Source: Candidatus Omnitrophota bacterium
Lineage (GTDB): Bacteria > Omnitrophota > Gorgyraeia > Aquiviventales > Aquiviventaceae
Length of the DNA: 64,000 bases
Assembly (NCBI GenBank): GCA_023247255.1
Contig: JAHFGV010000009.1
Coordinates: forward strand, 2,773 to 66,772
Reading direction: 5' to 3'
Shown: positions 8,753-29,631 of the stretch, in pieces
Layout: every line of letters starts with the position of its first letter
Numbering within the stretch: the first letter of the stretch is position 1
Program-made: the position numbers and the translations under genes
The notes under the pieces: generated by a model
The model's input: only the letters and a program-made list of their open reading frames with translations
The model's database searches: none
What the model was told of the DNA's origin: nothing

Positions 8753-9541
8753 ATGAGAATGTTGACGTATCTACGTGAACTCTATCGCTACCGGGACCTC
8801 CTCTTCAGCCTAACGGCGCGTGACATTAAGGTGCGCTACCGCCAGACGCTGCTCGGAGTCGCATGGGCGGTTATGCAGCCTCTGGCTTTTATGTTCATCT
8901 TCACCCTGGTGTTTCAGAAATTCGGCAAGGTCAGCTCCGATGGAACCCCCTATCCCTTATTCTCTTATACGGGCCTTGTTCCGTGGACCTTTTTCTCGAC
9001 CAGCCTTGGGCTTGCCGTCAACTCGATTGCAGGCAACATGAGCCTTGTCAAGAAAGTCTATTTCCCCAAAGAGGTTTTTCCCATCGGTGTGGTTCTGGCA
9101 TGCTTCGTGGATTTCCTCATCGCCTCGAGTCTGGTAGGGGGGCTTTTAATGTTCTACCGGTTTCCGGTCAACGTGCAGATAATCTGGATTCCGTGGCTCA
9201 TCGGTCTTGAAATCGTTTTTTTGATCGGTATCAGTCTGCTTGTCTCTAGCCTGAACGTTTTCTTTCGAGACGTTAAATACATCGTTCCCCTGGCGGTGCA
9301 GCTCTTGATGTTCACCACCCCGGTTATCTATCCCACCTCGATGGTGCCTGAGCCTCTGCGGCGCTACTTTCTCCTCAATCCCATGGCTGTTGTTGTCGAT
9401 GGGGTGCGTCGTGTAGTCTTGCACGGACAACCCCCTGAGCTTGGGCCTCTCGTGCTTAGCACGGCGCTTGTCGGTCTCTTCGTTGGTCTCGCCTATGGTT
9501 ACTTCAAGCGCGTCGAAGTACGTTTTGCAGACCTCATCTAA
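8753..9541 (+). CDS. ABC-2 type polysaccharide exporter permease (Wzm-like)
   Basis: N-terminal YRYRDLLFSLTARDIKVRYRQTLLGVAWAVMQP signature of ABC-2 permeases; six predicted TM helices. Confidence 0.8.
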   Translation: MRMLTYLRELYRYRDLLFSLTARDIKVRYRQTLLGVAWAVMQPLAFMFIFTLVFQKFGKVSSDGTPYPLFSYTGLVPWTFFSTSLGLAVNSIAGNMSLVKKVYFPKEVFPIGVVLACFVDFLIASSLVGGLLMFYRFPVNVQIIWIPWLIGLEIVFLIGISLLVSSLNVFFRDVKYIVPLAVQLLMFTTPVIYPTSMVPEPLRRYFLLNPMAVVVDGVRRVVLHGQPPELGPLVLSTALVGLFVGLAYGYFKRVEVRFADLI

Positions 9542-9545
9542 AAGC

Positions 9546-9969
9546 GAGACAGGAGACAGGAGACAAGTGATGAAGCCAATTAAAAGTTACAGGGATCTTG
9601 AAACCTGGCAAGAGGGAATACGTCTTGTGAATACCATCTACAAACTTACCAGTACCTTTCCCAAAGAGGAGAGTTACGGACTCATTAGCCAGATGAGGCG
9701 TGCGGCTGTTTCTGTTCCAGTCAATATAGCGGAGGGGTATGCTCGCAACCACCGGGCGGAATTACGCCAATTCCTCTATGTTGCACTTGGGTCATTAGCT
9801 GAATTAGAAACGCTTAGCATTGTGGCTTGTCAAGTTAGTTATATTGATCAGGCCTGTCTCTCAAGAGAGCTTGAATCGTCCATAGCGGTCTTACGTTTTA
9901 AGACCTTAGCCTTCTTGCGTCATTTGAGGTAGCTTGCCATGTCTCCTGTCTCCTGTCTCCTGTCTCCTG
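9546..9969. mobile_element. hairpin-terminated insertion between wzm and wzt carrying the four-helix-bundle gene; arms are heptamer arrays (GAGACAG)x3 at 9546-9567 and (GTCTCCT)x4 at 9941-9969
   Basis: Arms are reverse complements of each other; right arm supplies the ATG and first ~10 codons (MSPVSCLLSPAP) of the downstream ABC ATPase. Confidence 0.4.
9570..9932 (+). CDS. four-helix-bundle protein (23S rRNA intervening-sequence protein family)
   Basis: MKPIKSYRDLETWQEGIRLVNTIYKLTSTFPKEESYGLISQMRRAAVSVPVNIAEGYARNHRAELRQFLYVALGSLAELETL matches family signature; track start 9441 overlaps wzm and is rejected. Confidence 0.7.
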   Translation: MKPIKSYRDLETWQEGIRLVNTIYKLTSTFPKEESYGLISQMRRAAVSVPVNIAEGYARNHRAELRQFLYVALGSLAELETLSIVACQVSYIDQACLSRELESSIAVLRFKTLAFLRHLR

Positions 9970-11216
9970 CGCCATGTCCCATTACGTTCGATCACGTCTG
10001 GAAACGCTACCGCATAGGCTCCAAACATGACAGCCTCCGCGATGCGATTCCTCGATTCTTTAAGCAAGAGGCCGGACTCAATGGACAATCATTGCACGAA
10101 GGCGAGTTCTGGGCGATTCAGGACGTGACTTTTGAAGTCAAACATGCCGAGACCGTGGGCATCATCGGACCCAATGGGGCGGGCAAGAGTACCGCTTTGA
10201 AACTGCTCTCCAAAATCTGCAAGCAAACGAAAGGACAGATACAAGTGATCGGCCGCCTGGCCGCGTTGATTGAAGTGGGTGCCGGTTTTCATCCTGATCT
10301 GACCGGCCGCGAAAATATTTATCTCAACGGGACCATCATGGGTCTGCGCCGCAAAGAGATCGACCGACTCTTTGATTCGATCGTGGAGTTCTCGGAACTT
10401 AAAGACTTCCTCGAGATGCCCGTGAAGCGTTACTCTTCGGGAATGGCGGTGCGTCTGGGATTTTCGGTCGCCGCTCACGTCAACCCGGAGGTTTTGCTGA
10501 TCGATGAGGTGCTTGCCGTCGGGGATCTCGTTTTTCAGCAGAAATGTTACCAACGCCTGCAGGATCTAAAGGCGGCTGGGACGACAATCGTGTTTATCTC
10601 GCACAACCTGGAGGCGATTCAACGGCTCTGTGACCGCGTTGTTCTCCTGGACAAGGGGCTCCTCATCCAGGAAGGAAATCCGGCCGAGGTCATCGCGGGC
10701 TATCGCAACAAGGTCCTCCAGACATACCGTTCCAAGATGCGCCTGCCGCATGGCAATGTCATCGAGGAACGGTCTCTCGATGAGGTGGCATTCACGCAGG
10801 CTTTTCTCACAGACGCCTCTGGCAATATCTCAGACGCATTCTCTACGGGAGATACCGTCAGATTGCACCTGAGCTACCACGCTAAGCGGAATATCGAGCA
10901 GCCCAGGATTGTGGTTACGATCGAACGCCTCGATGGACTCGTCTGCCACACCACCTCAACCGCACATGCCATAGATGCATTCACTATCTCCGAAGGCGAC
11001 GCTAGCCTGATGTTGGAATACGACGCTTTGAACCTGTTGCCAAACACGTATCGGATTCAGGCAGCCCTCTTCGAACATAACAATCCCGTTCCCTTGTCCG
11101 CATCCAGCTATCAACTCTATTTCACCTTGACCTCAGACAGTCCTGAGATTGGGGCTGTGCATCTCGATCATCACTGGGACACAAAGGTGATTCCTGCAAG
11201 AGACAAAGTCCATTAA
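9939..11216 (+). CDS. ABC transporter ATP-binding protein Wzt-like with ~150-aa C-terminal extension (probable carbohydrate/terminal-cap binding domain)
   Basis: Walker A GPNGAGKST, signature YSSGMAVRLGFS, Walker B LLIDEVLAVGD; residues ~270-425 form an extra domain beyond the NBD. Confidence 0.8.
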   Translation: MSPVSCLLSPAPCPITFDHVWKRYRIGSKHDSLRDAIPRFFKQEAGLNGQSLHEGEFWAIQDVTFEVKHAETVGIIGPNGAGKSTALKLLSKICKQTKGQIQVIGRLAALIEVGAGFHPDLTGRENIYLNGTIMGLRRKEIDRLFDSIVEFSELKDFLEMPVKRYSSGMAVRLGFSVAAHVNPEVLLIDEVLAVGDLVFQQKCYQRLQDLKAAGTTIVFISHNLEAIQRLCDRVVLLDKGLLIQEGNPAEVIAGYRNKVLQTYRSKMRLPHGNVIEERSLDEVAFTQAFLTDASGNISDAFSTGDTVRLHLSYHAKRNIEQPRIVVTIERLDGLVCHTTSTAHAIDAFTISEGDASLMLEYDALNLLPNTYRIQAALFEHNNPVPLSASSYQLYFTLTSDSPEIGAVHLDHHWDTKVIPARDKVH

Positions 11217-11218
11217 CG

Positions 11219-13156
11219 ATGTGTGGCATCGTAGGGGTGTGGAACTTAAGTGGTGGACGAGTGGGCGAAAACGTCCTTTCTGCGATGCTCTCGACCATTC
11301 GCTACCGCGGACCCGATGACAGCGACGTCTGGGTGGATAACTCCATTGGCTTGGGGCACTGCCGTCTGAGCATTTTGGATTTGAGCACGCGAGCCCGGCA
11401 ACCCTTTCTGAGTGCTGATGGTCAAGGTGTTCTTGTGTACAACGGGGAAGTGTACAACTATCAAGAGTTAGGCTCCGAACTCAAGCAGGAAGGCGTTTCC
11501 TTAATCAGCACGTCAGATACTGAGGTAGTTCTGTATGCCCTCCACCGCTGGGGTCCTGAACGAGCCATCCCGCGCTTTAATGGCATGTTTGCCCTGGCCT
11601 ACTTTGATCGCCGGACACAGAAGCTGTGGTTGGCTCGGGATCGACTAGGGATTAAACCACTCTACATCACCCGTTCTTCGTCAGGCGTTGTCTTTGGCTC
11701 TGAAATCAAAGCCTTGTTGGCGCATCCCGATGTCTCAGGCCGACCGGACATCCATGCTTTGACGGGACATGTGCTCTGCCGGCGTCTTGAAGGCACAGTG
11801 ACTCCTTTCGAGGGAATCCAATCGATTCAACCGGGGACGATCCTAGAGATCAGTCCTTCTGCAAGCGAAACCCTAACGTATTTTGATGTGCTGCGAGACC
11901 TCGATCTTGCTCGGCTGTTGGCTGCGGCCGAGGATGATCCCCTGCAGTTGGCCTCGGAGTTCAAGCGCCTCTTTTGCGAAAGCGTCTCCATGCATCTGGT
12001 AAGCGACGTTCCACTGGCTGCGATGTGCAGCGGTGGCGTCGATTCCAGCCTCATGACAGCGATTACGGTACCCCACAAACGCGACATCGTGGCGTATGTG
12101 GCGGACGTGAAAGGTGCACGGGTGAGCGAAGGGCGAAAGGCCAAGATCGTCGCTCGTCATCTAGGCATTCAGATACGACAGGTCGATGTAGATCAAGACG
12201 ACTACCTGCGGCTATGGCCGCTTACCATTTGGCACAACGACCAGCCTAATTTTCTCGTCAATGACGCGCCGTTTTTTGCTGTGGCGAATGCCTGCCGGCG
12301 GGATGGATTCAAGGTGGTCTTGACGGGGGAAGGCTCGGATGAACTCTTCGGCGGTTATTCCTGGTATCCGAATGTTTATCGGATGTGGAGACAACGACGC
12401 CGCCATGCCACGCTGTTTCCGGATATACCGTTCTGGAAGGCTATTGGGAGGTTTCTTCCACCTCTAAATCCGCTGGATCTTGACGCTTTGAGCGAGACCC
12501 CATTTTCTCGCATCCGGCAACGAGGCACCCCCGATGAGCGCCTGCGGCGCTTGTGTGTTGCCGACGTCGATCAGTACCCCCTGCGTCAGGCGGCCTTGTT
12601 CAAAAAACTCTCCCCGGTGTCTTGCGTGGAAGATCGGGCGTTTCTTTCCTATTGCCTGGACGATTTGTACAGCGTTCTGCAACTCTTGCTTCAGCGTAAC
12701 GACCGGATGGGGATGGCTTCGTCCATTGAATCGCGGGTGCCCTTTCTTGAAAATCGACTCATCGATTTTGCCATCCATTTACCGCGCCGAGCCAAGTATC
12801 ACCGGGGTATCACGAAATGGGCTGTCAAGGCTACGGCCGAACAATACCTTCCTCGCGAGATCGTCCATGCCCCAAAGATCGGCTTTGGGGTGGATGGCAA
12901 CTCATGGCGAATTGCAGCGAAGGTTCTGTTCCAGCCCGGAGCTATCGTGCAGGAGATCTTTAAGTGGCGCAGCTCTTCCATGCCTCTCTTGCGGGAACAA
13001 CTGGCTAAGCATCCGGGAATCGCCCTGACTATGGTTGGGGTAGAGCTGTGGGGACGGATCTTTCTGAGGAAGGATCAACCTGAAGCATTGGGAGAAGAAC
13101 TCGTCCGGATGTGTGGTCTCTCATCCAGCGCGAAGGTCTCGGCACGCCCCGCTTAG
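11219..13156 (+). CDS. asparagine synthase (glutamine-hydrolysing) family amidotransferase
   Basis: N-terminal MCGIVG nucleophile, PP-loop CSGGVDSS; 645 aa. Confidence 0.85.
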   Translation: MCGIVGVWNLSGGRVGENVLSAMLSTIRYRGPDDSDVWVDNSIGLGHCRLSILDLSTRARQPFLSADGQGVLVYNGEVYNYQELGSELKQEGVSLISTSDTEVVLYALHRWGPERAIPRFNGMFALAYFDRRTQKLWLARDRLGIKPLYITRSSSGVVFGSEIKALLAHPDVSGRPDIHALTGHVLCRRLEGTVTPFEGIQSIQPGTILEISPSASETLTYFDVLRDLDLARLLAAAEDDPLQLASEFKRLFCESVSMHLVSDVPLAAMCSGGVDSSLMTAITVPHKRDIVAYVADVKGARVSEGRKAKIVARHLGIQIRQVDVDQDDYLRLWPLTIWHNDQPNFLVNDAPFFAVANACRRDGFKVVLTGEGSDELFGGYSWYPNVYRMWRQRRRHATLFPDIPFWKAIGRFLPPLNPLDLDALSETPFSRIRQRGTPDERLRRLCVADVDQYPLRQAALFKKLSPVSCVEDRAFLSYCLDDLYSVLQLLLQRNDRMGMASSIESRVPFLENRLIDFAIHLPRRAKYHRGITKWAVKATAEQYLPREIVHAPKIGFGVDGNSWRIAAKVLFQPGAIVQEIFKWRSSSMPLLREQLAKHPGIALTMVGVELWGRIFLRKDQPEALGEELVRMCGLSSSAKVSARPA

Positions 13157-13198
13157 GGTAGTCTGACACGGACTGGGAAATCGAAGGAAAGGCTCCAC

Positions 13199-14251
13199 AT
13201 GCAGGATATAGCGGATGCACAAGTCGCAGAGAGTCTTGATCCTCAGGTTCTTATCCGCTCGCTCATCCATTCGATTGATCAGGTCATAGCCGGATTGATT
13301 CCCGAGGGGGCTCCTTGCGCATTGGTCGATTTTCCCAGTCACTCGAACGTCGGAGACAGCGCGATTTGGCTTGGTGAAAAAAAGGTTCTACGCCGTCGCG
13401 GTGTTACCGTTGTCTATGTCTGTGATGGGCGGACTTATGCACGTAAGCATCTGACAAAACGGTTGGGTCGAGAAGGGATCATTTTGATTCATGGAGGAGG
13501 TAATCTCGGTGATCTCTGGCCGGCGAGAGAGCAGTTTCGAGAAAAGATCATTCAGGATTTCACGGATCACAAGATCATCCAGCTTCCCCAGTCCATCCAC
13601 TTTGCTAAGTCGGAGAATCTCAAACAGGCAAAGGTTGTCTTCAACGCGCATCCTGATTTGACCATTCTGGTGCGTGACACGCACAGCTTTGAGATGGCAA
13701 AGAATGAATTTTCCGCAAAGAGCATTCTCTGTCCTGATCTAGCGTTTGCGCTCGATCGGCCATCTCGACCTTCGCTACCGGAGAGCGAAATGGTGTGGCT
13801 TTCACGCACCGATAAGGAATCGATGGGTTTTGCTTTAGGCGATACCTCGCCACATTTAAAGGGAGCACCCCTGAATAAAACCGATTGGCTCGGCGAGCGG
13901 CCCACGTTAACGCATAAGCTCTACACTTTCGTCAAAGAACGGATCGAGCGACGTCCCACGTATCTGGGCTGGTGTTCGGGGTTCTTATCCCAGGGCTACG
14001 ACTGGATTGCGAATCAGCGCTTAGAGCGGGGATACCGTGCTTTGAGTAGAGGCCGCGTGGTGATTACGGATCGTCTTCATGGCCACATCCTCAGCCTGCT
14101 CTTGGGCATTCCGCATGTGTTGCTCGACAATAATTACGGGAAGCTTCGGCGGTTCTATGAAACCTGGACATCCCAGAGCAGCCTCACATTTTGGGCAACC
14201 TCACCGGAACAAGCAAGGACCCTCGCAGAAAAGCTTCTTAGGCAAAGCTGA
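13199..14251 (+). CDS. polysaccharide pyruvyl transferase family protein
   Basis: DFPSHSNVGDSAIW...ILIHGGGNLGDLW...VITDRLHGHILSLLLGIPHVLL pattern of CsaB/WcaK-type pyruvyl transferases. Confidence 0.65.
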   Translation: MQDIADAQVAESLDPQVLIRSLIHSIDQVIAGLIPEGAPCALVDFPSHSNVGDSAIWLGEKKVLRRRGVTVVYVCDGRTYARKHLTKRLGREGIILIHGGGNLGDLWPAREQFREKIIQDFTDHKIIQLPQSIHFAKSENLKQAKVVFNAHPDLTILVRDTHSFEMAKNEFSAKSILCPDLAFALDRPSRPSLPESEMVWLSRTDKESMGFALGDTSPHLKGAPLNKTDWLGERPTLTHKLYTFVKERIERRPTYLGWCSGFLSQGYDWIANQRLERGYRALSRGRVVITDRLHGHILSLLLGIPHVLLDNNYGKLRRFYETWTSQSSLTFWATSPEQARTLAEKLLRQS

Positions 14252-14266
14252 CCACGGATTGAGCGA

Positions 14267-16120
14267 ATGGCGAACTTTTTGCTCGTGATCGACCCAGACC
14301 AAACGCGGCGCGAGGCGTTTATCGGAGGAGTCAAGACGCGCATAGCGCCACTGGAAGGACTGACCTCTTCGCGTCTTGACGTCGGTGACTGTTCCGTTCT
14401 TTGGGCAATCAATCCTCAAGCGCCTATGAGCCAATGCGTTGACGAAAGCGGCGCTGCCATCCTATGGGGAGAGGCGATTCAAGGACCGGGGCCAAAGCGG
14501 CTGAGTGCTTCCGAGCTTAAGGACTACTGGAAAGACCCTCTCCAACGTATGCCAGAAGCCTTGGATGGGTTCCATGCGGCGATCCGTTATACGCCGGGAT
14601 CCCGTTTAGTGATCGGTGCCGATCCACTGGGATTGTTTCCCCTGTATTACCATGCTGCCAATGACATCCTGCTGGTTGGCTCGAGCGTTGAGTTGTTCCA
14701 GTATCATCCGAGCTTCTCTGGAAAATTGTCGAAAGATGCTCTCGTTGACATTCTTTTGATCACGCATCCTGTGGATGGCATGACGATCTTCCGAGACGTC
14801 CGCCGCGTTCAAGCAGGCCATCTGCTTCTTTGGAATAAGGGCTCAGCTCCTCAAGAGCTGAAGCAATATGAGCTTCGCCCTTCGGATAGGTATTTCGATC
14901 TTCCTCACGGCGCTTTGGTGAATAAGCTTGATGACGTGCTGAACGACGCCATCGCGCGACACGTTCAGAGGGATAAAGCACACAGCATGCTGCTCTCCGG
15001 CGGTCGCGATTCGCGGATGCTCGCAGGCTTTATGAAGCGAGCGCATCTTAAGGAGATAGAAGCCCTCACGTTAGGCCATTCATTGAAAGATTACGAGCTG
15101 AGTTGTGCCCGTCGAGTGGCGCGGATGCTGCACTTAAAACATCGATGGGTGGACATTCCACAGGAGGATTACCCCCAGTACGCAGCGTCGCACGCCCGGT
15201 GGATGCACGGATCAGCGGGTTTTCAAGGCATCATGTTTTGGGGGCTGCCCGCCCATCTGCGAGACCTGCCACCGCGCCTGGTTACAGGACACGTGATGGA
15301 CTCCATTGTGGGAGGCAGCCACATCCCTTGGGCTTTCGATCCTGAAAGGGGAGAGCCGTCTTTTCAGACGTTCTTTGGGAATGTGAATCGCTATGGTCTC
15401 CCGGTTCCTTTCGTTGAACAACTCCTTAATCCTTCCCTCAACGATCTCGTGCAGCAAAGGATCACTCGCATGCAAGAGATTTACAACGGCTATGGCCGAT
15501 TGGAAAGCCAGAAAGCCTTATGCTTCGATCTTTACCACAGACAACGCTTTTTTATAGGAAGCATTCCCTGGATATGCTCGTTTGGGGCATGGCCGATTCT
15601 ACCGGCCGTCGATCATCGGCTACTCGATCATCTCACTGGAATGCCGGCGTCCTTTCTGGCGGGTCGGCATGGGCAGGATGCCTTATTGAAAGCAAAATTT
15701 CCTGAACTGGCCGCATTACCCTTGGATCGGAATTCAAGAAACACGCGGCCGCTTCAACCCCGTCTTCGTCACATGCTGGGTGATTCTCTGAAACAGCGTG
15801 TTTTTTCTCTGCGCCAGCATCTCGCTAACGGTAATGGTCATGGAAGGGTCGAACCGAAATCTGAGCGGCGCTATTTCTACCGTCTTTTTGACATCAATGG
15901 TCCGGGGTGGATGCGTGTCAGAGAACTGGCCGATTCCAAGAGAGGAGTTCTGTCTTCCTTAGTGAATAAAGAGGTCTATGAGCGTGCATTGCCATCACCG
16001 CAGACGATCCTTCAATACGCCGACCCGCTGGTGGAATCTGCAGGGCTTAAGTCGCTTTTAGGATTAATCTTGATATTGAGACAACGTCTGGAGAGTTTTG
16101 AGGCTGGAGAGGTTAGCTAA
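14267..16120 (+). CDS. asparagine synthetase B-like amidotransferase paralogue lacking the N-terminal Cys
   Basis: PP-loop LLSGGRDSRMLAG present; N-terminus MANFLLVIDP has no Cys2 nucleophile. Confidence 0.65.
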   Translation: MANFLLVIDPDQTRREAFIGGVKTRIAPLEGLTSSRLDVGDCSVLWAINPQAPMSQCVDESGAAILWGEAIQGPGPKRLSASELKDYWKDPLQRMPEALDGFHAAIRYTPGSRLVIGADPLGLFPLYYHAANDILLVGSSVELFQYHPSFSGKLSKDALVDILLITHPVDGMTIFRDVRRVQAGHLLLWNKGSAPQELKQYELRPSDRYFDLPHGALVNKLDDVLNDAIARHVQRDKAHSMLLSGGRDSRMLAGFMKRAHLKEIEALTLGHSLKDYELSCARRVARMLHLKHRWVDIPQEDYPQYAASHARWMHGSAGFQGIMFWGLPAHLRDLPPRLVTGHVMDSIVGGSHIPWAFDPERGEPSFQTFFGNVNRYGLPVPFVEQLLNPSLNDLVQQRITRMQEIYNGYGRLESQKALCFDLYHRQRFFIGSIPWICSFGAWPILPAVDHRLLDHLTGMPASFLAGRHGQDALLKAKFPELAALPLDRNSRNTRPLQPRLRHMLGDSLKQRVFSLRQHLANGNGHGRVEPKSERRYFYRLFDINGPGWMRVRELADSKRGVLSSLVNKEVYERALPSPQTILQYADPLVESAGLKSLLGLILILRQRLESFEAGEVS

Positions 16121-16121
16121 A

Positions 16122-18187: not shown

Positions 18188-19078
18188 GTGATGACGATTG
18201 ACGTGGATTCCTACCGTAAACGCTGGCGGGAGGGTATTTGTCTAGACCCGCAGAAAGACATTCCCCAGAATTTTCTGGATGAATTGGAGACATACTCCGG
18301 GTTACCCAGAGAAGAAGCCTCGCGCCTCTTTTATAACGGTACCGAGGAATACGCCAAAGAGTGGCGAGAGAAGTATCAGAATGATCCCAACGCGCGCATT
18401 AAGTTCTATGACGAATCTTTCACGCACATCTTCTTTGTGATGCACAACAGTGCCCTGAACACCGAGCTGAGCAGTCCGCTTTTGTATGTCTACGCCGCCG
18501 ATTGGGCCAAGCGGATGGGGGTGCGCAGCTATTTAGATTACGGATCAGGGACGGGCTCCGGTGCGATGTTTTTTGCGAGGCAGGGAATCGCAACGACCCT
18601 CGCGGATATTTCCAGCAGGATGCTCTCTTTTACCCGCTGGCGTTTCGAGCGACGTGGGCTTCAGGCTAATTATTTGGATTTAAAGCAGGACTCACTTCCC
18701 GAAAACGCTTTCGATATGATCACTTCCTTCCACGTTCTTCAGCACGTCGAGGATCCTGTGGCGACCATGAGACAGTTGCGAAACGCCCTCAAACCGGGAG
18801 GCATCCTGTTGGTTAACGGCGCTCTCAGAAAAGATCGAGAACGCCCCATGCAGCCAGACCACAGGGGTGCTCTGACACGACGCAAGTTCCGCTCGGTAGG
18901 CCTGCAAACGCTATGGCCTCCTATCTATGACATGCGTGAGCTCTCCAACACAACACCTCAGGCCTACCGAAGGATCGAGCGCCCAGCGATCGTAAATGCC
19001 GCAATCGGATTCTTCGACACTTGCGTCACAGCACCCGCTCTTCGTCGATCGCTTTACCTAATGACGCATCCAACATAA
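18188..19078 (+). CDS. class I SAM-dependent methyltransferase
   Basis: Motif I LDYGSGTGSGAMFFARQG, motif post-I/II region LKPGGILLVN. Confidence 0.75.
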   Translation: MMTIDVDSYRKRWREGICLDPQKDIPQNFLDELETYSGLPREEASRLFYNGTEEYAKEWREKYQNDPNARIKFYDESFTHIFFVMHNSALNTELSSPLLYVYAADWAKRMGVRSYLDYGSGTGSGAMFFARQGIATTLADISSRMLSFTRWRFERRGLQANYLDLKQDSLPENAFDMITSFHVLQHVEDPVATMRQLRNALKPGGILLVNGALRKDRERPMQPDHRGALTRRKFRSVGLQTLWPPIYDMRELSNTTPQAYRRIERPAIVNAAIGFFDTCVTAPALRRSLYLMTHPT

Positions 19079-22520: not shown

Positions 22521-25357
22521 AGAATCGCTTCCTAAGACTTAAGCGAGGGATCAAACGACTGCTGGCACATCTCGCTCTGGCGAGTGGGCTCTTGGCTTTG
22601 ATCCGTTGGATATCCGGGCAGCGTCAGGATCGCTTTGCCATCCTGATGTATCACCGGCTAGGTCCCCAAGGACTTCCTCAAGAGGTGTTCGCGCATCAGA
22701 TGCGCTACGTCTCAAAACACTATCGATTGCTTCCGCTGGAAGAATTGGTCAGGCGGCACGTTCACAAAGAACCCATGCCACGCGGGGCAATGGCCATCAC
22801 CTTTGACGACGGCTACCGAGATTGTCTTGAAGTGGCGCAGCCGATTCTTTCATCGCTTGGTTTGCCAGCGACGGTGTTTCCCGTGGTCTCAGGGATTAAG
22901 GATGCGCAGCCCTTGTGGACGCATGTGGTCACGACGGTGTGTGAGCATCTTCCAGCAAACGAGGTATCGGTTCCCTTGGACTCTGAAACCCGACGTTACT
23001 CATGGAGAAACGATGCCGAACGCGGTCTGGTTGCTGAGACGATCAAGGAACAGCTCAAGCGTTTGGACAGCCAGTCGTTTGAGCGCGCTTTAGCGTTCTT
23101 GAAAGCGCAATGCCCTGACTGGAAACGCTTGACATGGGAGCAAGCGCCCATCGTGGATCGTCAGGGACTCCTGACGCTGCAAAAGTCCGGTTGGAATGTG
23201 GGTGCGCACACCGTGACTCATCCGATTCTCAGTCGCCTCTCGTTGGATCAGCTTCGCGGAGAGATCGAAGGTTCCAAACGTTGGCTTGAGGAACAGTTGA
23301 AGGAACCGGTGAGCGTGTTTTGTTATCCGAACGGAAAGTCTGACGACTACAATCCAGCAGTCATTCAGATCGTAGAAGCGTCTGGCTTCTCGGCAGCCTG
23401 CACCGCTGAGGAAGGCTGGAACGATGACACAACGTCCCCTTGGCAGATGAAGCGCCTGGTAACTTCAGAGCTTTCTCTGGCTGTCTTTGCCTGCGGGTTG
23501 GAATCGCTCTTTGCTCCTCGTCGTTGTCTGCACGCGCTTCGTGAGGGATGTCTCTTTTCGATCTCGAAGCTGAAGCGATTGGTTCTACGTGGGGGACTCC
23601 GTGCGCTGTGGGATTGGATGAAGGAACGACTGTGGATGGATCGAGAAGGGATTTTAATGACACTTCTTCTCAATCAGCCGCTGCGCATTCCACGAGCTAA
23701 GATTTTCTGCAACTACGCCTGGGCGAGTGAAGATGACCTAAAGAACTTACCGAATGTATTCCCGAGCCTTAACCCTCAGGTGATTCGCAAGCGCTATGAG
23801 CATGGGGATCGCTGTTGGGTAGGACGGAGAGAGACAAAGATCGTAACCTTCATGTGGATCGGCCGAGCAGCATGGGATGTTTGGTATTTCAGAGGCGAGA
23901 TTCCTTTGCTTCCTCACCAATGCTACAGCTATAACGCCTTTACTATCCCCTCCGCTCGAGGCTTGGGTGTGTTTCCTCAATGTGTGGAAGCTGCCCGGCA
24001 GGCACTCCTTGAAGAGGGGGTCACTTCTTTACTCGGTGTTGTGGATTCCAGAAACAGCGTTTCCTTACGGACCCTCAAGCGCTTCGGGATGTTTACCAGT
24101 GGCAGCCTATCGTTGAGGCGGCAATGGGGTTTCATGAAGCGTCGGATCGTTAAAATCACAGATGTGGAATCATCCCGTCATTCTAGCCATTCGTCGCTCA
24201 AACCCCTGTTGCGTCATCACCTCCCAGTCGCTGTGGTCTTAGGGCAGGGAAGAACAGGGCTCGGCGTGAATCGGCTCTTGGGGCGTCTGGGCATTCGGGT
24301 AGTCGGCGTCGATGCCGATGGACAAGCCTTGGGATTTCGTTCCCGTTACGTCACCCCGCAGCAAATCTCATGGGGAGAGACTCAGACGCTGTTGCAACTT
24401 TGCAAGGACCTGCGTCGAGGCACGGATGTCAAACCCGTTCTGATTCCCACATCGGATGATACGGTGCGATGGTTGATGAAGGATTGGGATGTTCTGGCAT
24501 CATCCATGCAGTGCTTGGCTCCAGAGCTCTCTGTCTGGGACATGCTCATGGACAAAAAACGCTGCCTGGAGGCTGCTGCTGCTTTAGGGGTCCACACGCC
24601 CAAAACATTTCGTGCGGATGAGGCTTTGCATGAGAGAGAGGGTCAGGGCTTCATTTATCCATGCGTTTTAAAGCCCATCGATAGACGAGCGATTTCCGGC
24701 CTTAATGGAGAGAAGGTATTTCTGCCGAAGGCTCGCGAGGAGATCCAAAGGGTGATCGCAGGTCTGGGCAGTCGACCTGAGCAATGGGTGGTCCAGGAGT
24801 TGATCCCGGGAGAGGATCGCTCTCATGGATCCTGCGCTGTGTGTTTGGGGCATCAGGGAGAAGTGTTGGGAGTTTTCACCAGTAGGAAGTTGCGTCAGTA
24901 TCCACCAGGCTACGGGATTGCGACGATCTGTGAAAGCGCTTGGGAGAGTGTTTTGGCTGAGCAAGCGATTCGGTTCCTACAAGGAGTGGGTTTCCGCGGG
25001 GTAGCAGAGGTGGAGTTCAAGCAGGATGCACAGGACGGAAAATGGAAGTTGATCGAAGTCAATCCTCGTCTTTGGATTCAGCACACGCTTGCTGCTCGAT
25101 GTGGGGTGAACCTGGCCTATGTCCTCTACCTGGCAACGATCGGTTTGGAACCCAAGCCATTGCCACGACAGAAAGAGAACATCCGATGGATTGCGGCAGA
25201 ACTGGATTGGTTCTCGCTGCGCCAAATCGCGCGTCAGCGTCGAGTGAATTGGCAGGAGTGGACTGAGGGTTTTCGGGCAGAGCGGGAGACTTCCTTGTGG
25301 CAGTGGGACGATCCCCGTCCGGCTATCCACCGTGCGCGGGAGCTCATGAGTTCTTAG
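22505..25357 (+). CDS. trifunctional fusion: polysaccharide deacetylase (NodB) – FemAB/GNAT-like acyltransferase – ATP-grasp ligase
   Basis: res ~95-110 MAITFDDGYRDC (NodB motif 1); res ~400-540 FemAB/GNAT-like; res ~690-870 VLKPIDRRAISGLNGEKVFL...ELIPGED...AEVEFKQD...KLIEVNPRLW (ATP-grasp). Confidence 0.7.
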   Translation: MCARMKNRFLRLKRGIKRLLAHLALASGLLALIRWISGQRQDRFAILMYHRLGPQGLPQEVFAHQMRYVSKHYRLLPLEELVRRHVHKEPMPRGAMAITFDDGYRDCLEVAQPILSSLGLPATVFPVVSGIKDAQPLWTHVVTTVCEHLPANEVSVPLDSETRRYSWRNDAERGLVAETIKEQLKRLDSQSFERALAFLKAQCPDWKRLTWEQAPIVDRQGLLTLQKSGWNVGAHTVTHPILSRLSLDQLRGEIEGSKRWLEEQLKEPVSVFCYPNGKSDDYNPAVIQIVEASGFSAACTAEEGWNDDTTSPWQMKRLVTSELSLAVFACGLESLFAPRRCLHALREGCLFSISKLKRLVLRGGLRALWDWMKERLWMDREGILMTLLLNQPLRIPRAKIFCNYAWASEDDLKNLPNVFPSLNPQVIRKRYEHGDRCWVGRRETKIVTFMWIGRAAWDVWYFRGEIPLLPHQCYSYNAFTIPSARGLGVFPQCVEAARQALLEEGVTSLLGVVDSRNSVSLRTLKRFGMFTSGSLSLRRQWGFMKRRIVKITDVESSRHSSHSSLKPLLRHHLPVAVVLGQGRTGLGVNRLLGRLGIRVVGVDADGQALGFRSRYVTPQQISWGETQTLLQLCKDLRRGTDVKPVLIPTSDDTVRWLMKDWDVLASSMQCLAPELSVWDMLMDKKRCLEAAAALGVHTPKTFRADEALHEREGQGFIYPCVLKPIDRRAISGLNGEKVFLPKAREEIQRVIAGLGSRPEQWVVQELIPGEDRSHGSCAVCLGHQGEVLGVFTSRKLRQYPPGYGIATICESAWESVLAEQAIRFLQGVGFRGVAEVEFKQDAQDGKWKLIEVNPRLWIQHTLAARCGVNLAYVLYLATIGLEPKPLPRQKENIRWIAAELDWFSLRQIARQRRVNWQEWTEGFRAERETSLWQWDDPRPAIHRARELMSS

Positions 25358-25638
25358 TTGGACAAACGTATGCGTCGGTTGCCTCTATCGATTGCAGCGC
25401 CGCTTGCAGTGAATGTTTCGCGAAAGATGATAGAAACAGCAGTCTGGTCTTTGGGGAGTTTAAGGCGAGCGCTGAGAATACGTTGGGCAGCGCGTTGCAT
25501 AGTTTCTCGTCGACTCGCTGTGGGCGTCAAAGGATGATTGGTCAGGTACATGCGGATGGCCTCGCGCACGCGTTCACTGCGACTCCGATGCTCGGCTTTT
25601 GCCAAGGTATCCACCCAGAACCACGAAGATATATCCAA
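25354..25638 (-). CDS. possible ribbon-helix-helix (CopG-like) small protein
   Basis: TTG-start ORF; VDTLAKAEHRSRSERVREAIRMYL fits the RHH helixA-G/SRSE-helixB signature; convergent with the 950-aa gene (4-nt overlap); no clear RBS. Confidence 0.3.
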   Translation of the reverse strand: MDISSWFWVDTLAKAEHRSRSERVREAIRMYLTNHPLTPTASRRETMQRAAQRILSARLKLPKDQTAVSIIFRETFTASGAAIDRGNRRIRLSN

Positions 25639-25653
25639 CTGAAAAGGATGTAG

Positions 25654-27120
25654 ATGGCTTTCAAGTCCTTTAACACGGCGATTCCGGTTGCGCTGCAGAC
25701 GCGGCGAGCGCTCCCCACCATTGACCGGCGCATATGGCTCATGGCGGTTTTGGCCTGTGGGTTTGCGGTCTTGGTGATGAAGGAGGTCGCATTGCCTTCA
25801 TCCCTCATCTTAGTTTTTGGGGGGCTGGGACTCTTCGCTTTGTTTGCAGTCGGCCTCCAGAGTCCGGAGATTCCGTTCTACGTGCTGGTTGCTTACCTCC
25901 CGTTTAGCCGTCTACTCGTCGGTGATTTCGGTACCCAGGCGACGGCGCTGAATCTTACCAACATCTTCACCTTAGGGGTGTTCATCGCTCATGTGTTTCG
26001 GCAAGGAGCGCGTGGACAAGCCCCATTTCAATCCACACCGTTGAATCGTATGATCTCGTTGTTCTGCGCCTTAGGGGCGGCCGCTTTGATACGGGCGGGT
26101 TGGGATTATGGTTCCTGGTATGCCTGGCACTATCTCATTCCCCTCAAGCGTTGGCTTACCCCGATGTTTCTTTACTTCCTCACGCTTTGGGTGGTGCGAG
26201 ATAAAAGAGTGCTGAAGACTTCAGCGATCCTCATCATGATCGTCGTGACTCTGGTTGCCCTCATGGCGATTCGGGATTACATGAATGTCGAGGGAAGCGG
26301 CTTTGAAGCCTCGCGCATCGGAGGGATCGCCGAACATTCCAATACCTTGGGGGCTTTCTTCGTCTACTACATGTTTTTACATCTAGGTTTCTTCCTCACC
26401 CACACTTCGAGGCCTCGAGCGTGGCTTTTATTGATTCCGTTTCTGCTTTGCTTCCGGGGAATCATGGTGACATTCTCCCGCGGGGCTTACCTGGCATTCG
26501 CGATAGGATCTCTGGCAGCCTGTTGGTTTCGACATAAGCTCTTGTTCGTTACCGCCGTAGTCGCACTGGTGTTTGCGATTCTCAATCCGACGTTGTTGCC
26601 TTCAGGGATTCGCTACCGGATGGGAATGACGATAATTCATCATGATACGGGTGTGGTTCAAGAGGACATCACGCAGAACCTCGAGGGCAGCTCGGCCTCG
26701 CGTATTGAGATATGGCGCGGAGCGCTCAAGATGATCCAGGATCATCCTTGGTGGGGGGTCGGTTACGAAGCCTTTCCTCGGTTCATGCCAAGTTATACCG
26801 AGGGAAAGATCGGATACATGGACGCCCATAATAGCTATCTCTTAATCGCTGCAGAGATGGGTTTACCGACTCTCGGTGTCTTTCTACTCGTTCTTTTAAT
26901 GATTGGATACTATACCCACTGGCTCTATCGGCATGCCCAGGACAAGGCGTTGAAGGCTATCGCCCTGGGATTCTTGGCGGGGTTGGCCGGGCTGTGGGTG
27001 GCGAATCTCTTCGGTTCACGCATGGACCACGCAGAGGTATCCGGATACTTCTGGATTATTTGTGGCCTTATTATGCGCGGCGTGTTGATTGAGCGGCAGG
27101 AATTAGCACACAGCAAATAG
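25654..27120 (+). CDS. O-antigen ligase/polymerase family membrane protein (Wzy_C-like)
   Basis: ~11 TM helices with a periplasmic loop; DAHNSYLLIAAEMGLPTLGVFLL matches the O-antigen ligase/Wzy_C motif. Confidence 0.65.
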   Translation: MAFKSFNTAIPVALQTRRALPTIDRRIWLMAVLACGFAVLVMKEVALPSSLILVFGGLGLFALFAVGLQSPEIPFYVLVAYLPFSRLLVGDFGTQATALNLTNIFTLGVFIAHVFRQGARGQAPFQSTPLNRMISLFCALGAAALIRAGWDYGSWYAWHYLIPLKRWLTPMFLYFLTLWVVRDKRVLKTSAILIMIVVTLVALMAIRDYMNVEGSGFEASRIGGIAEHSNTLGAFFVYYMFLHLGFFLTHTSRPRAWLLLIPFLLCFRGIMVTFSRGAYLAFAIGSLAACWFRHKLLFVTAVVALVFAILNPTLLPSGIRYRMGMTIIHHDTGVVQEDITQNLEGSSASRIEIWRGALKMIQDHPWWGVGYEAFPRFMPSYTEGKIGYMDAHNSYLLIAAEMGLPTLGVFLLVLLMIGYYTHWLYRHAQDKALKAIALGFLAGLAGLWVANLFGSRMDHAEVSGYFWIICGLIMRGVLIERQELAHSK

Positions 27121-27147
27121 CACACAGCACATGGCAGACACAACGGA

Positions 27148-29631
27148 ATGAAGGGATCCCACTCCGAACTCCAAACTCCGAATTCCGAATCCCGAACTGG
27201 GAAACATGTCCTATATCCCAGCCTGGGTATGATCGTTTCCCAATTCCCAGAGATGCACGAGACGTTCATCATGCGGGAACTGAGCGCGTTGCGCGATGCA
27301 GGAATTCCTCTGCGTATCTATTCATTGAAACGCTGCCGCGATCCTATCGTACATCCGCAAGCGCAAAAACTTCTCGGGTTGACTCGCTATGTGGTATGGA
27401 ACGATGCCGTTGTTTGGGTACGTGCGGCCGGGTTAGTTCTCCGGCGTCCGATGCGGGCGTTCTCGATACTCGGCTGGGTGGTTCGCCATCATTCTGGGAG
27501 GGCTTTCCTTTTGGCAAAGGCGCTCGTGGTATGGGCACAGGCGATTGTAATCGCCGAGAAGATGCGCGAGGAGGGGATTACGCATATCCATGCGCATTGG
27601 GCAACGGTGCCGACGACGGCGGCTGTGATCGCTTCCGATTGGCTGGGTATTCCCTTTAGCTTCACGGCGCACGCGTGGGATATCTTTGTTCGGAATCCAT
27701 CCCTGAAAGAGAAGATACGACTTTCAGCTAGGGTGATGACCTGCACGGATTACAACCGGCGGTTTCTCCAGCACTTGTGTCCGGGAGAGCGAGAGAAGAT
27801 CATCGTGAACTATCACGGCGTGGACCTCGGGAAGTTTCAACAACTACAACAAGAGACAAGAAACAGGGGACAGGGGACATGTTTTGTGTCTCCTATCTCC
27901 CGTCTCCCGTCTCCCGTCTCCTGTCCCGTTTTTCTATCGGTGGGTCGGCTCGTTGAGACCAAAGGCTATCCTGTTCTTTTGGAAGCCTACCGACGGCTGA
28001 AGTCGGAGGGCATGGCGTTTCACGCGGTGATCGTTGGGGAAGGTTGCCTGCGTGATAGGCTGGAACATCAGATTCGTGTGAACCATCTGGCCGATGTCGT
28101 CGAGTTGAGAAACGCGATGGGGCAGGAGGCACTACGCAAGCTCTATCGGGATGCCTTCGCCTTTGTCCTGCCTTGCACCGTTGCTGAAGACGGGGACCGC
28201 GATGGGATTCCGAATGTCATTCTCGAGGCCATGGCTTGTAGTTTGCCGATAGTCTCGACACAGATCTCGGGAATCCCAGAAGCCGTGCAGGATCGCCGCA
28301 GCGGATTGTTGGTTCCACCCAACGATGGGGAAGAGCTCGCTCGCGCCTTGAAACTTTTGCTGCAGCGGCCGAGTTTTGCCCGTGTATTGGGTGACCACGG
28401 GCGAATGTGGGCGGAGTGTACGTTTGACGCCCGCGAGCATATGCAACAACTCGTGGTTCGGATGAGGGGGTTGTTAGAGAAATCTGTTAGACCCGTTAAC
28501 GTCATGTACGTCATTTGGTCGCTGGAGGTCGGTGGGGCAGAGCGTGTTGTGATGACGCTCGCCAGTGGCCTGGACCGTAAGCGGTTTTCTCCGATCGTGG
28601 TGTGTCTCAATCAGGAAGGACGTATGGCGGCCATGCTTAAACAGCAAGGGATTACTGTGATTGCCCTGAACAAGCGTCCGGGAGTCGATTTGGGGATGCT
28701 GGTGCGTCTGGCGTGGTTGATGAGGCAGCATGGCGTGCAAGTTGTGCACGCGCATCTATGGGGAGCGAATCTGTGGGCGCGTATCGCTGCCATGATGGCA
28801 AGGGTACCGGTCGTCATTGTCCACGAACACGGGATGCAGCCTTGGCGAGGAACCTGGCATTTCCGAATCGACCGTTGGCTGGGACGAAGAACGAGCCGGA
28901 TTCTCTTTGCATCCTCGGAAGTCATGCAGAAGTATGGTGCAAAGACGGGGATGGCACAAAGGCGTTGCCTGTGGGTTCCCAATGGAATCGACGGGAGGCC
29001 GCAAGGATTGGATCGTACCCGTTTGCGAGCACGATTGGGTTTTTCCGATGAAGATCGCGTCGTGATCAGTGTCGGCCGACTCTCACCAGAGAAAGGGCAT
29101 GAAGATTTGTTGCTTGCCTTCGCTCAACTGAGGCAACAGGTGCCTCAGGCGCGTTTGGTATTGGTAGGAGACGGGATAGAGCGAGACACGCTCCAGGCGC
29201 TTCAAGCACGCTGTGGACTTAACGGTGAAGTGACCTTCGCGGGAGTGCAGGACGACGTGCGTCCGTGGCTCGCTGCTGCCGACGTCTACGTTCAGCCTTC
29301 GAGGCGGGAAGGTTTGTCACTGGCCGTTCTTGAGGCGATGGCCTTCGGGCTTCCCGTCATCGCGACCCATGTAGGGGATACGGCACGTGTCATTACCGAT
29401 GGAATGACAGGATACCTAGTGCCTGCTCAGCAACCGGAGGTCTTATCGGCTAAGCTCAAGCAGGTTCTCGATCAACGGGATCAGCAAGGAACTTTAGTAG
29501 AGGCGGCCCGCGCGCTTGTGCAGCGTGATTACTCCGAGCGCCAGATGGTGGGGATAGTGGAGAGGGTTTACGAGGAAGAACTCGTCAAAGAAACAATAAT
29601 TAGCACACAGCAATTAGTACACAGCACATAG
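27148..29631 (+). CDS. tandem GT4–GT4 glycosyltransferase (WbdA-like architecture)
   Basis: Two complete GT4 modules: DGIPNVILEAMACSLPIVSTQISGIPEAV (res ~350) and REGLSLAVLEAMAFGLPVIATHVGDTARVI (res ~720). Confidence 0.8.
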   Translation: MKGSHSELQTPNSESRTGKHVLYPSLGMIVSQFPEMHETFIMRELSALRDAGIPLRIYSLKRCRDPIVHPQAQKLLGLTRYVVWNDAVVWVRAAGLVLRRPMRAFSILGWVVRHHSGRAFLLAKALVVWAQAIVIAEKMREEGITHIHAHWATVPTTAAVIASDWLGIPFSFTAHAWDIFVRNPSLKEKIRLSARVMTCTDYNRRFLQHLCPGEREKIIVNYHGVDLGKFQQLQQETRNRGQGTCFVSPISRLPSPVSCPVFLSVGRLVETKGYPVLLEAYRRLKSEGMAFHAVIVGEGCLRDRLEHQIRVNHLADVVELRNAMGQEALRKLYRDAFAFVLPCTVAEDGDRDGIPNVILEAMACSLPIVSTQISGIPEAVQDRRSGLLVPPNDGEELARALKLLLQRPSFARVLGDHGRMWAECTFDAREHMQQLVVRMRGLLEKSVRPVNVMYVIWSLEVGGAERVVMTLASGLDRKRFSPIVVCLNQEGRMAAMLKQQGITVIALNKRPGVDLGMLVRLAWLMRQHGVQVVHAHLWGANLWARIAAMMARVPVVIVHEHGMQPWRGTWHFRIDRWLGRRTSRILFASSEVMQKYGAKTGMAQRRCLWVPNGIDGRPQGLDRTRLRARLGFSDEDRVVISVGRLSPEKGHEDLLLAFAQLRQQVPQARLVLVGDGIERDTLQALQARCGLNGEVTFAGVQDDVRPWLAAADVYVQPSRREGLSLAVLEAMAFGLPVIATHVGDTARVITDGMTGYLVPAQQPEVLSAKLKQVLDQRDQQGTLVEAARALVQRDYSERQMVGIVERVYEEELVKETIISTQQLVHST
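27853..27927. repeat. 75-bp hairpin repeat inserted in frame inside the GT4–GT4 gene (arms gagacaagaaacaggggacaggggaca / tctcctatctcccgtctcccgtctcccgtctcctgtccc)
   Basis: Self-complementary arms around tgttttgtg loop; encodes RNRGQGTCFVSPISRLPSPVSCP linker; same GACAGG/CCTGTC heptamer family as 9546-9969. Confidence 0.5.

Follow-up and report, generated by a model that had tools for sequence, protein, structure and literature searches.

A Wzm/Wzt exporter with a predicted carbohydrate-binding domain in an exosortase/PEP-CTERM polysaccharide locus of an Omnitrophota-like genome

We analyzed a 64-kb stretch of contig JAHFGV010000009.1 (assembly GCA_023247255.1, Candidatus Omnitrophota bacterium), hereafter the window, which carries an O-antigen-type ATP-binding cassette (ABC) transporter, Wzm/Wzt, beside a set of genes for polysaccharide export through the outer membrane. 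On the open reading frame (ORF) map of the window, the plus strand from ~3.4 to 50.6 kb is a single tightly packed, co-directional gene array (features below are on the plus strand unless stated otherwise). Within it, ~3.4-49.5 kb constitutes one exosortase/PEP-CTERM polysaccharide locus of an Omnitrophota-like metagenome-assembled genome (MAG). Gaps are short or genes overlap throughout 3384-42500. Only two convincing intrinsic terminators were found in a scan of the plus strand, one at 3336, before the locus, and a strong one with a 13-bp stem and a T-run at 42535-42563, after the third PEP-CTERM gene; none is located between the outer-membrane export set and the Wzm/Wzt set. Nothing in the sequence points to separate regulation of the two.

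The locus starts with five genes that we refer to as the head cassette. The first encodes a small MerR-type helix-turn-helix protein (3384-3659; Pfam MerR, 44.7 bits; the true start is probably later), and is followed by the gene for an OPX/Wza-family outer-membrane polysaccharide export protein (3674-4612; Pfam Poly_export, 58 bits, and SLBB_2), composed of a signal peptide, a Ser/Pro-rich linker, the Poly_export domain, one SLBB domain and a short C-terminal helix. Next come a polysaccharide co-polymerase (PCP) without a fused kinase (4724-6262; Pfam GNVR and Wzz), an AAA_22 ATPase of the XrtA/PEP-CTERM type (6262-7095) and a stand-alone BY-type tyrosine autokinase (7662-8582; TIGR01007, 148 bits vs cut-off 108). 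The PCP belongs to the chain-length determinant type of XrtA systems and passes the corresponding model (TIGR03007, 326.8 bits vs cut-off 278.85). The ATPase is just below its cut-off (TIGR03015, 310.1 bits vs 324.5), and the OPX protein (TIGR03027 pepcterm_export, 90 bits) and the kinase (TIGR03018, 144.8 bits) are below theirs. That several markers fall below XrtA-specific cut-offs is expected, because the genome belongs to a distant phylum. The exporter, chain-length determinant and kinase named in the initial annotation are thus all real, but they lie 5' of position 8753, where the region it described begins. The other genes it had named, namely those for Wzm, Wzt, a methyltransferase, a GT2+GT4 and a tandem GT4-GT4 glycosyltransferase, are likewise genuine ORFs with significant family matches, and are found where it had placed them.

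The head cassette is followed by the gene for Wzm, an ABC-2 permease (8753-9541; Pfam ABC2_membrane, 63 bits vs cut-off 26.9), and that for Wzt (9939-11216), in which an ABC ATPase (residues ~20-265; Pfam ABC_tran) is joined to a C-terminal carbohydrate-binding domain (CBD; residues ~281-405, nucleotides 10779-11153), recognized by Pfam Wzt_C at residues 281-405 with 51.9 bits vs cut-off 30.4. In a sequence search against PDB, full-length Wzt aligns to Wzt of Aquifex aeolicus (7k2t/8dku) over residues 20-377 with an E-value of 2e-68. Consistently, the best Foldseek matches of its AlphaFold2 (AF2) model (pLDDT 85.7) are the Aquifex Wzt structures (E-value 7e-40). The isolated C-terminal domain had no match in PDB by phmmer, and its fold is shown via an AF2 model combined with Foldseek. 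For this, Wzt residues 270-425 were modelled from 58 homologs (pLDDT 88.3). The top 17 PDB matches of the model are exclusively CBDs of Wzt proteins, with query-normalised TM-scores of 0.62-0.74; for matches to crystal structures the TM-scores are 0.68-0.74 and the root-mean-square deviations 2.1-4.0 Å (mostly 2.1-3.4 Å). They include the Aquifex CBD crystallized with 3-O-methyl-mannose (8dky), the O12-type CBD that binds a 3-deoxy-D-manno-oct-2-ulosonic acid (Kdo) cap (5hno/5hnp) and that of E. coli O9a (2r5o); for 8dky, 6o14, 5hno and 2r5o the TM-scores are 0.70-0.74 and the E-values 1e-8 to 2e-7. The next fold class, unrelated immunoglobulin-like domains, starts at an E-value of 1e-5, three orders of magnitude worse. 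Sequence identity between the window CBD and the solved Wzt CBDs is 12-18%. Thus, the structure check set in advance for residues 270-425 identifies them as a carbohydrate-binding module, as the initial annotation had proposed, only Wzt CBDs matching at that level.

CBD-type Wzt domains read the modified non-reducing end, or terminal cap, of the polymer (PMC9445017). Since this fold has that function in known systems, it is reasonable to infer that the polymer made here bears a non-reducing-end cap as well. In Aquifex, the cap pocket includes Trp362, His355 and Leu300, among other residues, and Tyr233 serves as the hinge (PMC9445017). A near-invariant tyrosine of the window family, Tyr255, is positioned at or beside Aquifex Tyr233; the sequence alignment stops before the cap pocket.

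Polysaccharide assembly by the Wzx/Wzy route requires more than export proteins, and the locus was inspected for the remaining components. It encodes one Wzy_C-family polytopic membrane protein (25654-27120; Pfam Wzy_C, 86 bits), whose sole sequence match in PDB is the Cupriavidus WaaL ligase 7tpg. The SRG, R..IW, HPWxGVG and AHN motifs are aligned and retained between the two, and orthologs are present in three related loci with Wzm/Wzt (L001, L007 and L111). Judging from these matches, the protein is probably a ligase of the WaaL/PglL type rather than a polymerase, its ligase role and its acceptor both being putative. No Wzx could be detected in the 64-kb window by phmmer with a Wzx of a related locus at E-values up to 10. 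Hydropathy analysis gave no further protein with at least 10 transmembrane segments in the locus, the polytopic candidates being the Wzy_C protein and a 7-segment protein without assigned function. The locus has a single initiating transferase, a small polyprenyl-phosphate glycosyl-1-phosphate transferase (40991-41755; Pfam Bac_transf, 223.6 bits; TIGR03025, 294.6 bits vs cut-off 295.55), the only initiating enzyme found. What had been described as a Wzy-dependent set therefore holds up as to its OPX, PCP, BY-kinase and Wzy_C members, but not as a complete pathway: since Wzx is absent and the Wzy_C protein is WaaL-like, the set corresponds to an export cassette plus a probable ligase.

To place this arrangement in context, related loci (numbered with the prefix L) were compared, including loci collected by a metagenome scan with the AAA_22 protein and annotated by phmmer. 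AAA_22 orthologs in these loci are 71-79% identical, and the head cassette is kept in 24 of the 24 related loci examined, with the MerR gene also located 5' of the OPX gene in L003, L006 and most others. Nine of the 17 close relatives with enough downstream sequence have Wzm, or Wzm and Wzt, after the kinase gene. In L001, L003 and L006 the order is MerR-OPX-PCP-AAA_22-kinase-(DgkA)-Wzm-Wzt, with Wzt 58-61% identical to that of the window, and in L003 and L001 the gene junctions are 4 nucleotides long or overlapping. Recurrence of the gene order at such levels of Wzt identity means that the arrangement is not a chance juxtaposition. Other loci have different genes at this position. In two more distant sisters, L131 and L138, the same head cassette is followed by Polysacc_synt (Wzx), accompanied in L131 by Wzy_C, and some other related loci have GT-C enzymes in the place of Wzm/Wzt. 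Loci with Wzm/Wzt mostly have no Wzx-like ORF. Such a distribution would be expected of a head cassette that works as a generic outer export module, with Wzm/Wzt as one of several inner-membrane modules that can replace one another behind it. In L001 and L006, a DAGK_prokar gene (DgkA or undecaprenol-kinase-like), not seen in the window, is positioned between the kinase gene and wzm; its presence fits a polyprenyl-phosphate carrier. The glycan-specific genes vary strongly from one related locus to another, and even a strain with a 91%-identical Wzt differs from the window by insertions and a gene fusion.

The initial annotation regarded the two gene sets as normally alternative pathways, which overstates the oddity, because Wzc/Wza genes directly 5' of Wzm-Wzt occur in several unrelated phyla. 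As a background set we used a scan of genome contigs based on Wzt alignment, which gave 80 distant Wzt loci (at most 42% identity, other phyla) among the matches listed. In approximately 12-14 of these 80, a Wzc-like gene, in some cases accompanied by OPX, is found at most 10 kb from Wzm-Wzt, and it is nearly always located upstream and on the same strand. Pfam confirmed the Wzz, GNVR and kinase domains in loci of Pyrinomonadaceae (L021), Pustulibacterium marinum (L071), Anaerolineae (L032) and Capsulimonadaceae, and kinase-type domains only in a locus of Bacteroidia. To judge from the gene numbers in PMC4594306, wzc of Synechocystis (sll0923) and wzm/wzt (slr0977/slr0982) are a few genes apart. 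These loci resemble the window in having a PCP-2a tyrosine kinase, with or without OPX, directly 5' of Wzm-Wzt on the same strand, but differ in that Wzc is fused, exosortase and AAA_22 were not detected by sequence search and no PEP-CTERM protein was seen within 10 kb. None of them, as far as we found, has been characterized as one pathway. In reviews, PCP-2 proteins and BY-kinases are paired with Wzy-dependent pathways and PCP-3 proteins with Kps-type ABC pathways (PMC12220298). A survey of OPX genes has already placed some of them in ABC pathways from their genomic context, with Wzt_C as the marker (PMC9601211). The juxtaposition of Wzc/Wza and Wzm/Wzt is thus recurrent and under-studied rather than unique.

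Downstream of Wzt, the 11-39 kb region encodes glycan assembly and modification enzymes. A class I S-adenosylmethionine-dependent methyltransferase (18188-19078; Pfam Methyltransf_11) is a candidate modifying or capping enzyme, and was considered as a chain terminator. Its PDB matches are generic class I enzymes, with no match to WbdD, and among the related loci examined an ortholog is found solely in a sister strain, L171. Being restricted to one sister strain, the methyltransferase does not accompany this Wzt clade in a conserved manner; its identification as a WbdD homolog was rejected, and a terminator role is unsupported. More generally, no dedicated terminator, either a WbdD-type kinase/methyltransferase or a WbbB-type Kdo transferase, is recognizable in the locus, and the cap may be of another chemistry. 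The adjacent gene (19171-20388) encodes an orphan protein of 405 residues with no Pfam or NCBIfam match, for which 15 relatives were retrieved among 1.84 billion representatives. The family has the invariant pattern E-P...G-x-S-D-x-D...H...R-x-x-W, including its G-x-S-D-x-D motif. This pattern suggests a possible nucleotidyltransferase fold, and a nucleotidyltransferase match is non-significant (E-value 0.39); a role as a WbdD-like kinase is unsupported. Within the related loci, orthologs of this protein occur only in L171, and in one relative (P0250) the homolog is fused to GNAT/FemAB-like acetyltransferase domains.

The tandem GT4-GT4 protein (27148-29631; two Pfam Glycos_transf_1 stretches) resembles WbdA, to which the initial annotation had likened it, in domain architecture only, that is, in having two GT4 modules: both halves match best the stp2 family of XrtA systems (325.9 bits), and the PDB matches are generic GT4 enzymes. 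Its orthologs are found in L111 (800 bits) and L007 (890 bits). A GT2+GT4 two-domain ORF (20385-22520; Pfam) is real, but its status as an ancestral polymerase fusion was rejected, because in L171 (3751-6913) GT2 and GT4 are separate genes with a ~1-kb toxin-antitoxin cassette between them. L171 also has an additional GT4 gene after the gene for the polysaccharide deacetylase + ATP-grasp fusion protein (window 22505-25357; Pfam; orthologs in L093, L111 and L171). Together, the GT2/GT4 split and the extra GT4 gene point to recent remodelling of the glycan genes. Additional glycosyltransferases include a GT2 enzyme (17252-18187; Pfam, 112 bits), orthologs of which occur in 6 of 11 Wzm/Wzt-positive relatives inspected, and a GT4 enzyme (31125-32303).

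As for modification, a glutamine-dependent AsnB-type amidotransferase (11219-13156; TIGR01536, 409 bits), which probably amidates sugar carboxylates, is encoded directly after Wzt in both L003 and L005, and in L006 one gene lies in between. It is followed by a polysaccharide pyruvyl transferase (13199-14251; Pfam PS_pyruv_trans, 119.8 bits) and two divergent genes with weak Asn_synthase matches (14267-16120 and 16098-17255). The four-gene stretch 11219-17255 thus has three Asn_synthase-like genes, with the pyruvyl transferase between the first and the other two; the AsnB model is passed by the 11219 product only, those of 14267 and 16098 being highly divergent. The 29635-34730 segment begins with the gene for a 497-residue membrane-anchored protein without assigned function and ends with that for a GH123-like glycoside hydrolase with an N-terminal hydrophobic segment, possibly a signal peptide or anchor (32430-34730); the GH123 gene is linked to Wzm/Wzt in L007 too. 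Further downstream, a PgaB-like deacetylase and a membrane GT2 with weak similarity to PgaC (36904-38881) may represent a small synthase-type side module. The 378-nucleotide spacer in front of them (36526-36903) contains two perfect G/C-rich hairpins, TCCCTCTCCCCAAAGGGGAGAGGGA (36637-36661) and CCCTCTCCCTTTTCAGGGAGAGGG (near 36840).

The exosortase/PEP-CTERM module, which the initial annotation did not mention, occupies the 3' part of the locus. Three proteins pass the Pfam PEP-CTERM model (PF07589, cut-off 20.7 bits), those encoded at 38896-39750 (25.3 bits), 39912-40625 (21.0 bits) and 41713-42489 (33.6 bits), the last followed by the strong terminator. A fourth, small PEP-CTERM protein appears to be split over two frames, its signal peptide being encoded at 42783-42896 and its PEP-CTERM part at 42884-43252. 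A TPR protein gene (from 44111; match below the family cut-off) precedes the gene for the exosortase of the EpsH family (45278-46135; TIGR02602, 147.8 bits vs cut-off 105.55), which scores 161.7 bits with the XrtA-specific model, below 208. The EpsI-domain ORF (45907-46839; TIGR02914, 77 bits vs 42.8) is in a different frame and overlaps the exosortase ORF by 229 nucleotides. Jointly, the two ORFs cover a fused XrtD-type model collinearly (model positions 9-239 and 285-475), and the two-frame layout reflects either a natural split or a frameshift. Being an exosortase/PEP-CTERM locus, the region suggests a polymer fate different from that in the earlier reading.

Ahead of the head operon there is a sigma-54-type -24/-12 promoter element, TGGTACGTAACCTGCT (3414-3429). 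In 11 of 18 loci examined, one of which is the window, an element of the form TGGCAY-N5-YTGCT precedes the MerR ORF by ~45-70 nucleotides; the chance expectation is ~0.003 per locus. Across the whole window, sigma-54 patterns are not more frequent than by chance (44 vs 33 expected); the head-operon site carries weight because it is positionally conserved. The promoter of the head operon is thus predicted to be sigma-54-type and conserved among relatives. A scan for sigma-70 promoters was uninformative, returning fewer sites than in shuffled sequence. Two other sigma-54-like sites are intergenic, one 5' of the phosphoglycosyl transferase gene (40888-40903) and one 5' of the small split PEP-CTERM gene (42738-42753). 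The locus further encodes a sensor histidine kinase and a sigma-54-dependent response regulator (46682-49520; PrsK/PrsR-like; TIGR02915, 378.5 bits, below the cut-off of 502.6), and is adjoined by rpoN, the gene for sigma-54 itself, on the minus strand (50784-52190; TIGR02395, 394 bits). With regard to PrsK/PrsR/PrsT-type regulation, the response regulator and TPR matches fall below family cut-offs and sigma-54-type promoters are present. The dcw cell-wall cluster starts after the locus, at 52.9 kb, and the named relatives of the window MurE and Wzt all come from Candidatus Omnitrophota MAGs. Upstream of the locus, a gene for an HTTM-domain membrane protein (2-913) is located on the minus strand, and ORFs at 1.1-3.3 kb had no family matches.

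Several inserted genes interrupt the array. The gene between Wzm and Wzt (9570-9932; Pfam PF05635, 112 bits) encodes a 23S_rRNA_IVP four-helix-bundle protein (IVP) that is not part of the pathway. This intact gene, part of an insert at 9547-9962, is flanked by the inverted repeats GAGACAGGAGACA and TGTCTCCTGTCTC, and the right repeat arm encodes the first codons of the Wzt ORF. The sister contig L005 has an IVP insertion at the same Wzm/Wzt site. A truncated IVP copy (7259-7561) within the 7096-7661 spacer is bounded by inverted repeats of the ACGTAACACGT and GTGTCATG types, and relatives L005, L006 and L089 also have IVP genes in this operon. The IVP inserts resemble small mobile insertions. 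The gap preceding the Wzy_C gene contains an antisense ORF of 94 residues on the minus strand (25354-25638), which is 60% identical to an RHH_1 antitoxin of L171 (10933-11633) that is paired there with a PIN toxin; in the window the PIN partner seems to be missing. The glycan operon of L171 holds two more toxin-antitoxin-like cassettes (PIN_3/HicB-like and DUF5678).

Taken together, these observations are best accommodated by a single ABC-dependent, cap-gated assembly line that feeds the PCP/AAA_22/kinase/OPX conduit of a sigma-54-controlled exosortase locus and in which the Wzy_C protein would serve as a ligase. We consider this scenario moderately probable. According to it, the phosphoglycosyl transferase encoded at 40991 would start one undecaprenyl-phosphate-linked heteropolysaccharide, which the GT2, GT4 and tandem GT4 enzymes would elongate fully in the cytoplasm. 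The chain would be decorated by amidation, pyruvylation, methylation and deacetylation/ATP-grasp chemistry. The CBD of Wzt would then read a mark at the non-reducing end of the finished chain and license its export by Wzm/Wzt. In the periplasm, the presumably co-transcribed PCP/AAA_22/tyrosine-kinase/OPX cassette would take over the chain and pass it through the outer membrane. The putative ligase of the Wzy_C family would shift it from the lipid carrier to an acceptor, and exosortase-processed PEP-CTERM proteins would join the same matrix. That there is a single polymer, and that the ABC transporter is physically coupled to PCP and OPX, we infer. Of the two possibilities raised in the initial annotation, one ABC-exported polymer with final export by Wza and the BY-kinase agrees with the adjacency of the gene sets, the absence of Wzx, the single initiator and the lack of a terminator in between. 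Two complete pathways are not present, since Wzx is missing and the Wzy_C protein is nearest to WaaL.

A number of observations weigh against the single assembly line. About half of the closest head cassettes are without Wzm/Wzt, so that the cassette does not need this transporter, and in L001, an exception to the general rule, Wzx and Wzm/Wzt are both in the operon. Within the window, a 170-nucleotide spacer separates the kinase gene from wzm, in addition to the IVP insertions. No conserved capping enzyme was identified across the Wzm/Wzt-positive loci. The Pfam Wzy_C family cannot tell ligases from polymerases, and Wzx, Wzy or WaaL may be encoded beyond the 64-kb window. Finally, the CBD-type Wzt systems characterized so far all serve O antigens, which are delivered to WaaL and Lpt rather than to OPX.

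We regard as rather unlikely a scenario in which one gene block serves two polymers. A capped, O-antigen-like polymer would be exported by Wzm/Wzt, ligated to lipid A-core by the WaaL-type Wzy_C protein and transported by Lpt, and a second one, the exosortase exopolysaccharide, would leave via OPX/PCP/kinase; the genes for its flippase and polymerase would lie elsewhere, or its flippase and polymerase would be proteins not recognised as such. The O-antigen service of all characterized CBD-type Wzt proteins (PMC9445017; PDB titles) and the resemblance of the Wzy_C protein to WaaL are in line with such a division, as are L007, where Wzm-Wzt-GT4-Wzy_C occurs with no OPX/PCP within 10 kb upstream, the head cassettes lacking Wzm/Wzt, and the abundance of glycosyltransferases, including the second, PgaB/PgaC-like pair. 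Against this, there is one initiating transferase and no Wzx in 46 kb, no terminator separates the gene sets, and wzm-wzt comes directly after the kinase gene, with 4-nucleotide or overlapping junctions in relatives.

Alternatively, the two sets could form a hybrid pathway, an explanation that we find quite improbable. Wzm/Wzt would replace Wzx and flip short lipid-linked units or blocks, with the CBD reading a pyruvyl or methyl mark, after which the Wzy_C protein, controlled by the PCP and the kinase, would polymerise them in the periplasm, followed by export through OPX. Such a pathway would preserve the normal partnership of PCP-2-type proteins and BY-kinases with a Wzy polymerase (PMC12220298) and give a role to the Wzy_C protein, which co-occurs with Wzm/Wzt and in L124 is encoded between the kinase gene and Wzm-Wzt. 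However, the only structural relative of this protein detectable by sequence is a ligase, tandem multi-domain glycosyltransferases suggest polymerisation in the cytoplasm, and known O-antigen-type Wzm/Wzt channels move complete polymers (PMC9445017). That the adjacency is historical only, a product of shuffled polysaccharide cassettes, toxin-antitoxin and IVP genes with Wzm/Wzt not functionally coupled to OPX/PCP, is very improbable: inserted IVP and RHH/PIN genes throughout the locus, the insertions and gene fusion separating the window from the strain with the 91%-identical Wzt and the strong variation of glycan-specific genes speak for it, but many loci whose Wzt is 58-61% identical preserve both the gene order and the tight junctions, and independent lineages also place Wzc/Wza directly 5' of Wzm-Wzt.

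A bolder extension of the single assembly line, speculative and decidedly unlikely, is that the capped, CBD-licensed, ABC-exported glycan is joined covalently to PEP-CTERM proteins by the Wzy_C-type ligase and/or the exosortase and leaves via the PCP/OPX conduit driven by the tyrosine kinase and AAA_22; the periplasm would be reached by finished chains only. If true, this would be a proteoglycan assembly line made of an O-antigen-type exporter and a capsule-type outer-membrane machine, and the glycan would be the long-sought partner of the exosortase system.

In textbook accounts, tyrosine-kinase PCP-2 proteins are paired with Wzy polymerases, and cap-reading Wzt exporters with lipopolysaccharide O antigens. 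The window and its relatives have a Wzt exporter of the cap-reading type in one operon with a PCP-2-type/kinase/OPX cassette and no flippase. Should the coupling be true, the PCP/kinase/OPX machine would be agnostic as to the inner-membrane route of its polymer, PCP-2 kinases would have a Wzy-independent role, and the ABC route could feed exosortase-linked matrices. One head cassette with two alternative inner-membrane modules also provides a natural comparative set for studying how modules dock. The practical weight of the locus is limited by its uncultured host and by the similar juxtapositions in other phyla.

The locus shares components with several types of known systems. Group 2/3 capsule systems (KpsMT-KpsE-KpsD) likewise carry a finished polymer over both membranes by means of an ABC transporter, PCP and OPX (PMC9601211, PMC12220298). 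However, the window PCP is PCP-2-like with a separate BY-kinase rather than PCP-3, the transporter is of the O-antigen type with a CBD, and the lipid carrier is probably undecaprenyl phosphate. KpsS/KpsC-type linker enzymes and Capsule_synth were absent among the ORFs scanned at 3.4-50.6 kb. Membership in Group 2 (Kps) was rejected based on the scores of Wzm with the KpsM model (58 bits vs cut-off 300) and of the PCP with the KpsE-family model (marginal, E-value 5e-4). Group 1 capsule systems (Wzx-Wzy-Wza-Wzc) have in common with the window OPX, PCP, BY-kinase, a Wzy_C protein and a WbaP/WcaJ-class initiator. In contrast to them, the window has no Wzx, the locus yielded no Wzb phosphatase, kinase and PCP are separate proteins, and there is an extra AAA_22 ATPase.

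CBD-type O-antigen export systems (E. coli O9a, K. pneumoniae O12/R. terrigena and Aquifex aeolicus) share with the window the ABC-2 permease and the CBD fold, as well as multi-domain GT4 enzymes, a methyltransferase and a nearby WaaL-like Wzy_C protein. They are initiated by a WecA-type enzyme, whereas the window encodes a Bac_transf phosphoglycosyl transferase and no recognizable WbdD/WbbB-like terminator. In addition, OPX, PCP, tyrosine kinase and exosortase genes, none of which is used by the O-antigen systems, share the window operon. XrtA/PEP-CTERM systems (PMC1569441; zooglan-type loci, bioRxiv 10.64898/2025.12.21.693542) have in common with the window the exosortase, EpsI and PEP-CTERM proteins, the XrtA-type chain-length determinant, the PEP-CTERM-type ATPase, the tyrosine kinase and OPX, stp2-like GT4 enzymes, an AsnB-type amidotransferase and deacetylases, and the sigma-54 response regulator, histidine kinase and TPR protein. 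The founding PEP-CTERM paper (Haft et al. 2006) mentions no ABC transporter (PMC1569441), and the described XrtA systems are treated as Wzx/Wzy-type; in the window, Wzx is lacking and the CBD-bearing Wzm/Wzt is found in that place. Based on these comparisons, the locus is predicted to be a recurrent variant of known pathways and not a new kind of system.

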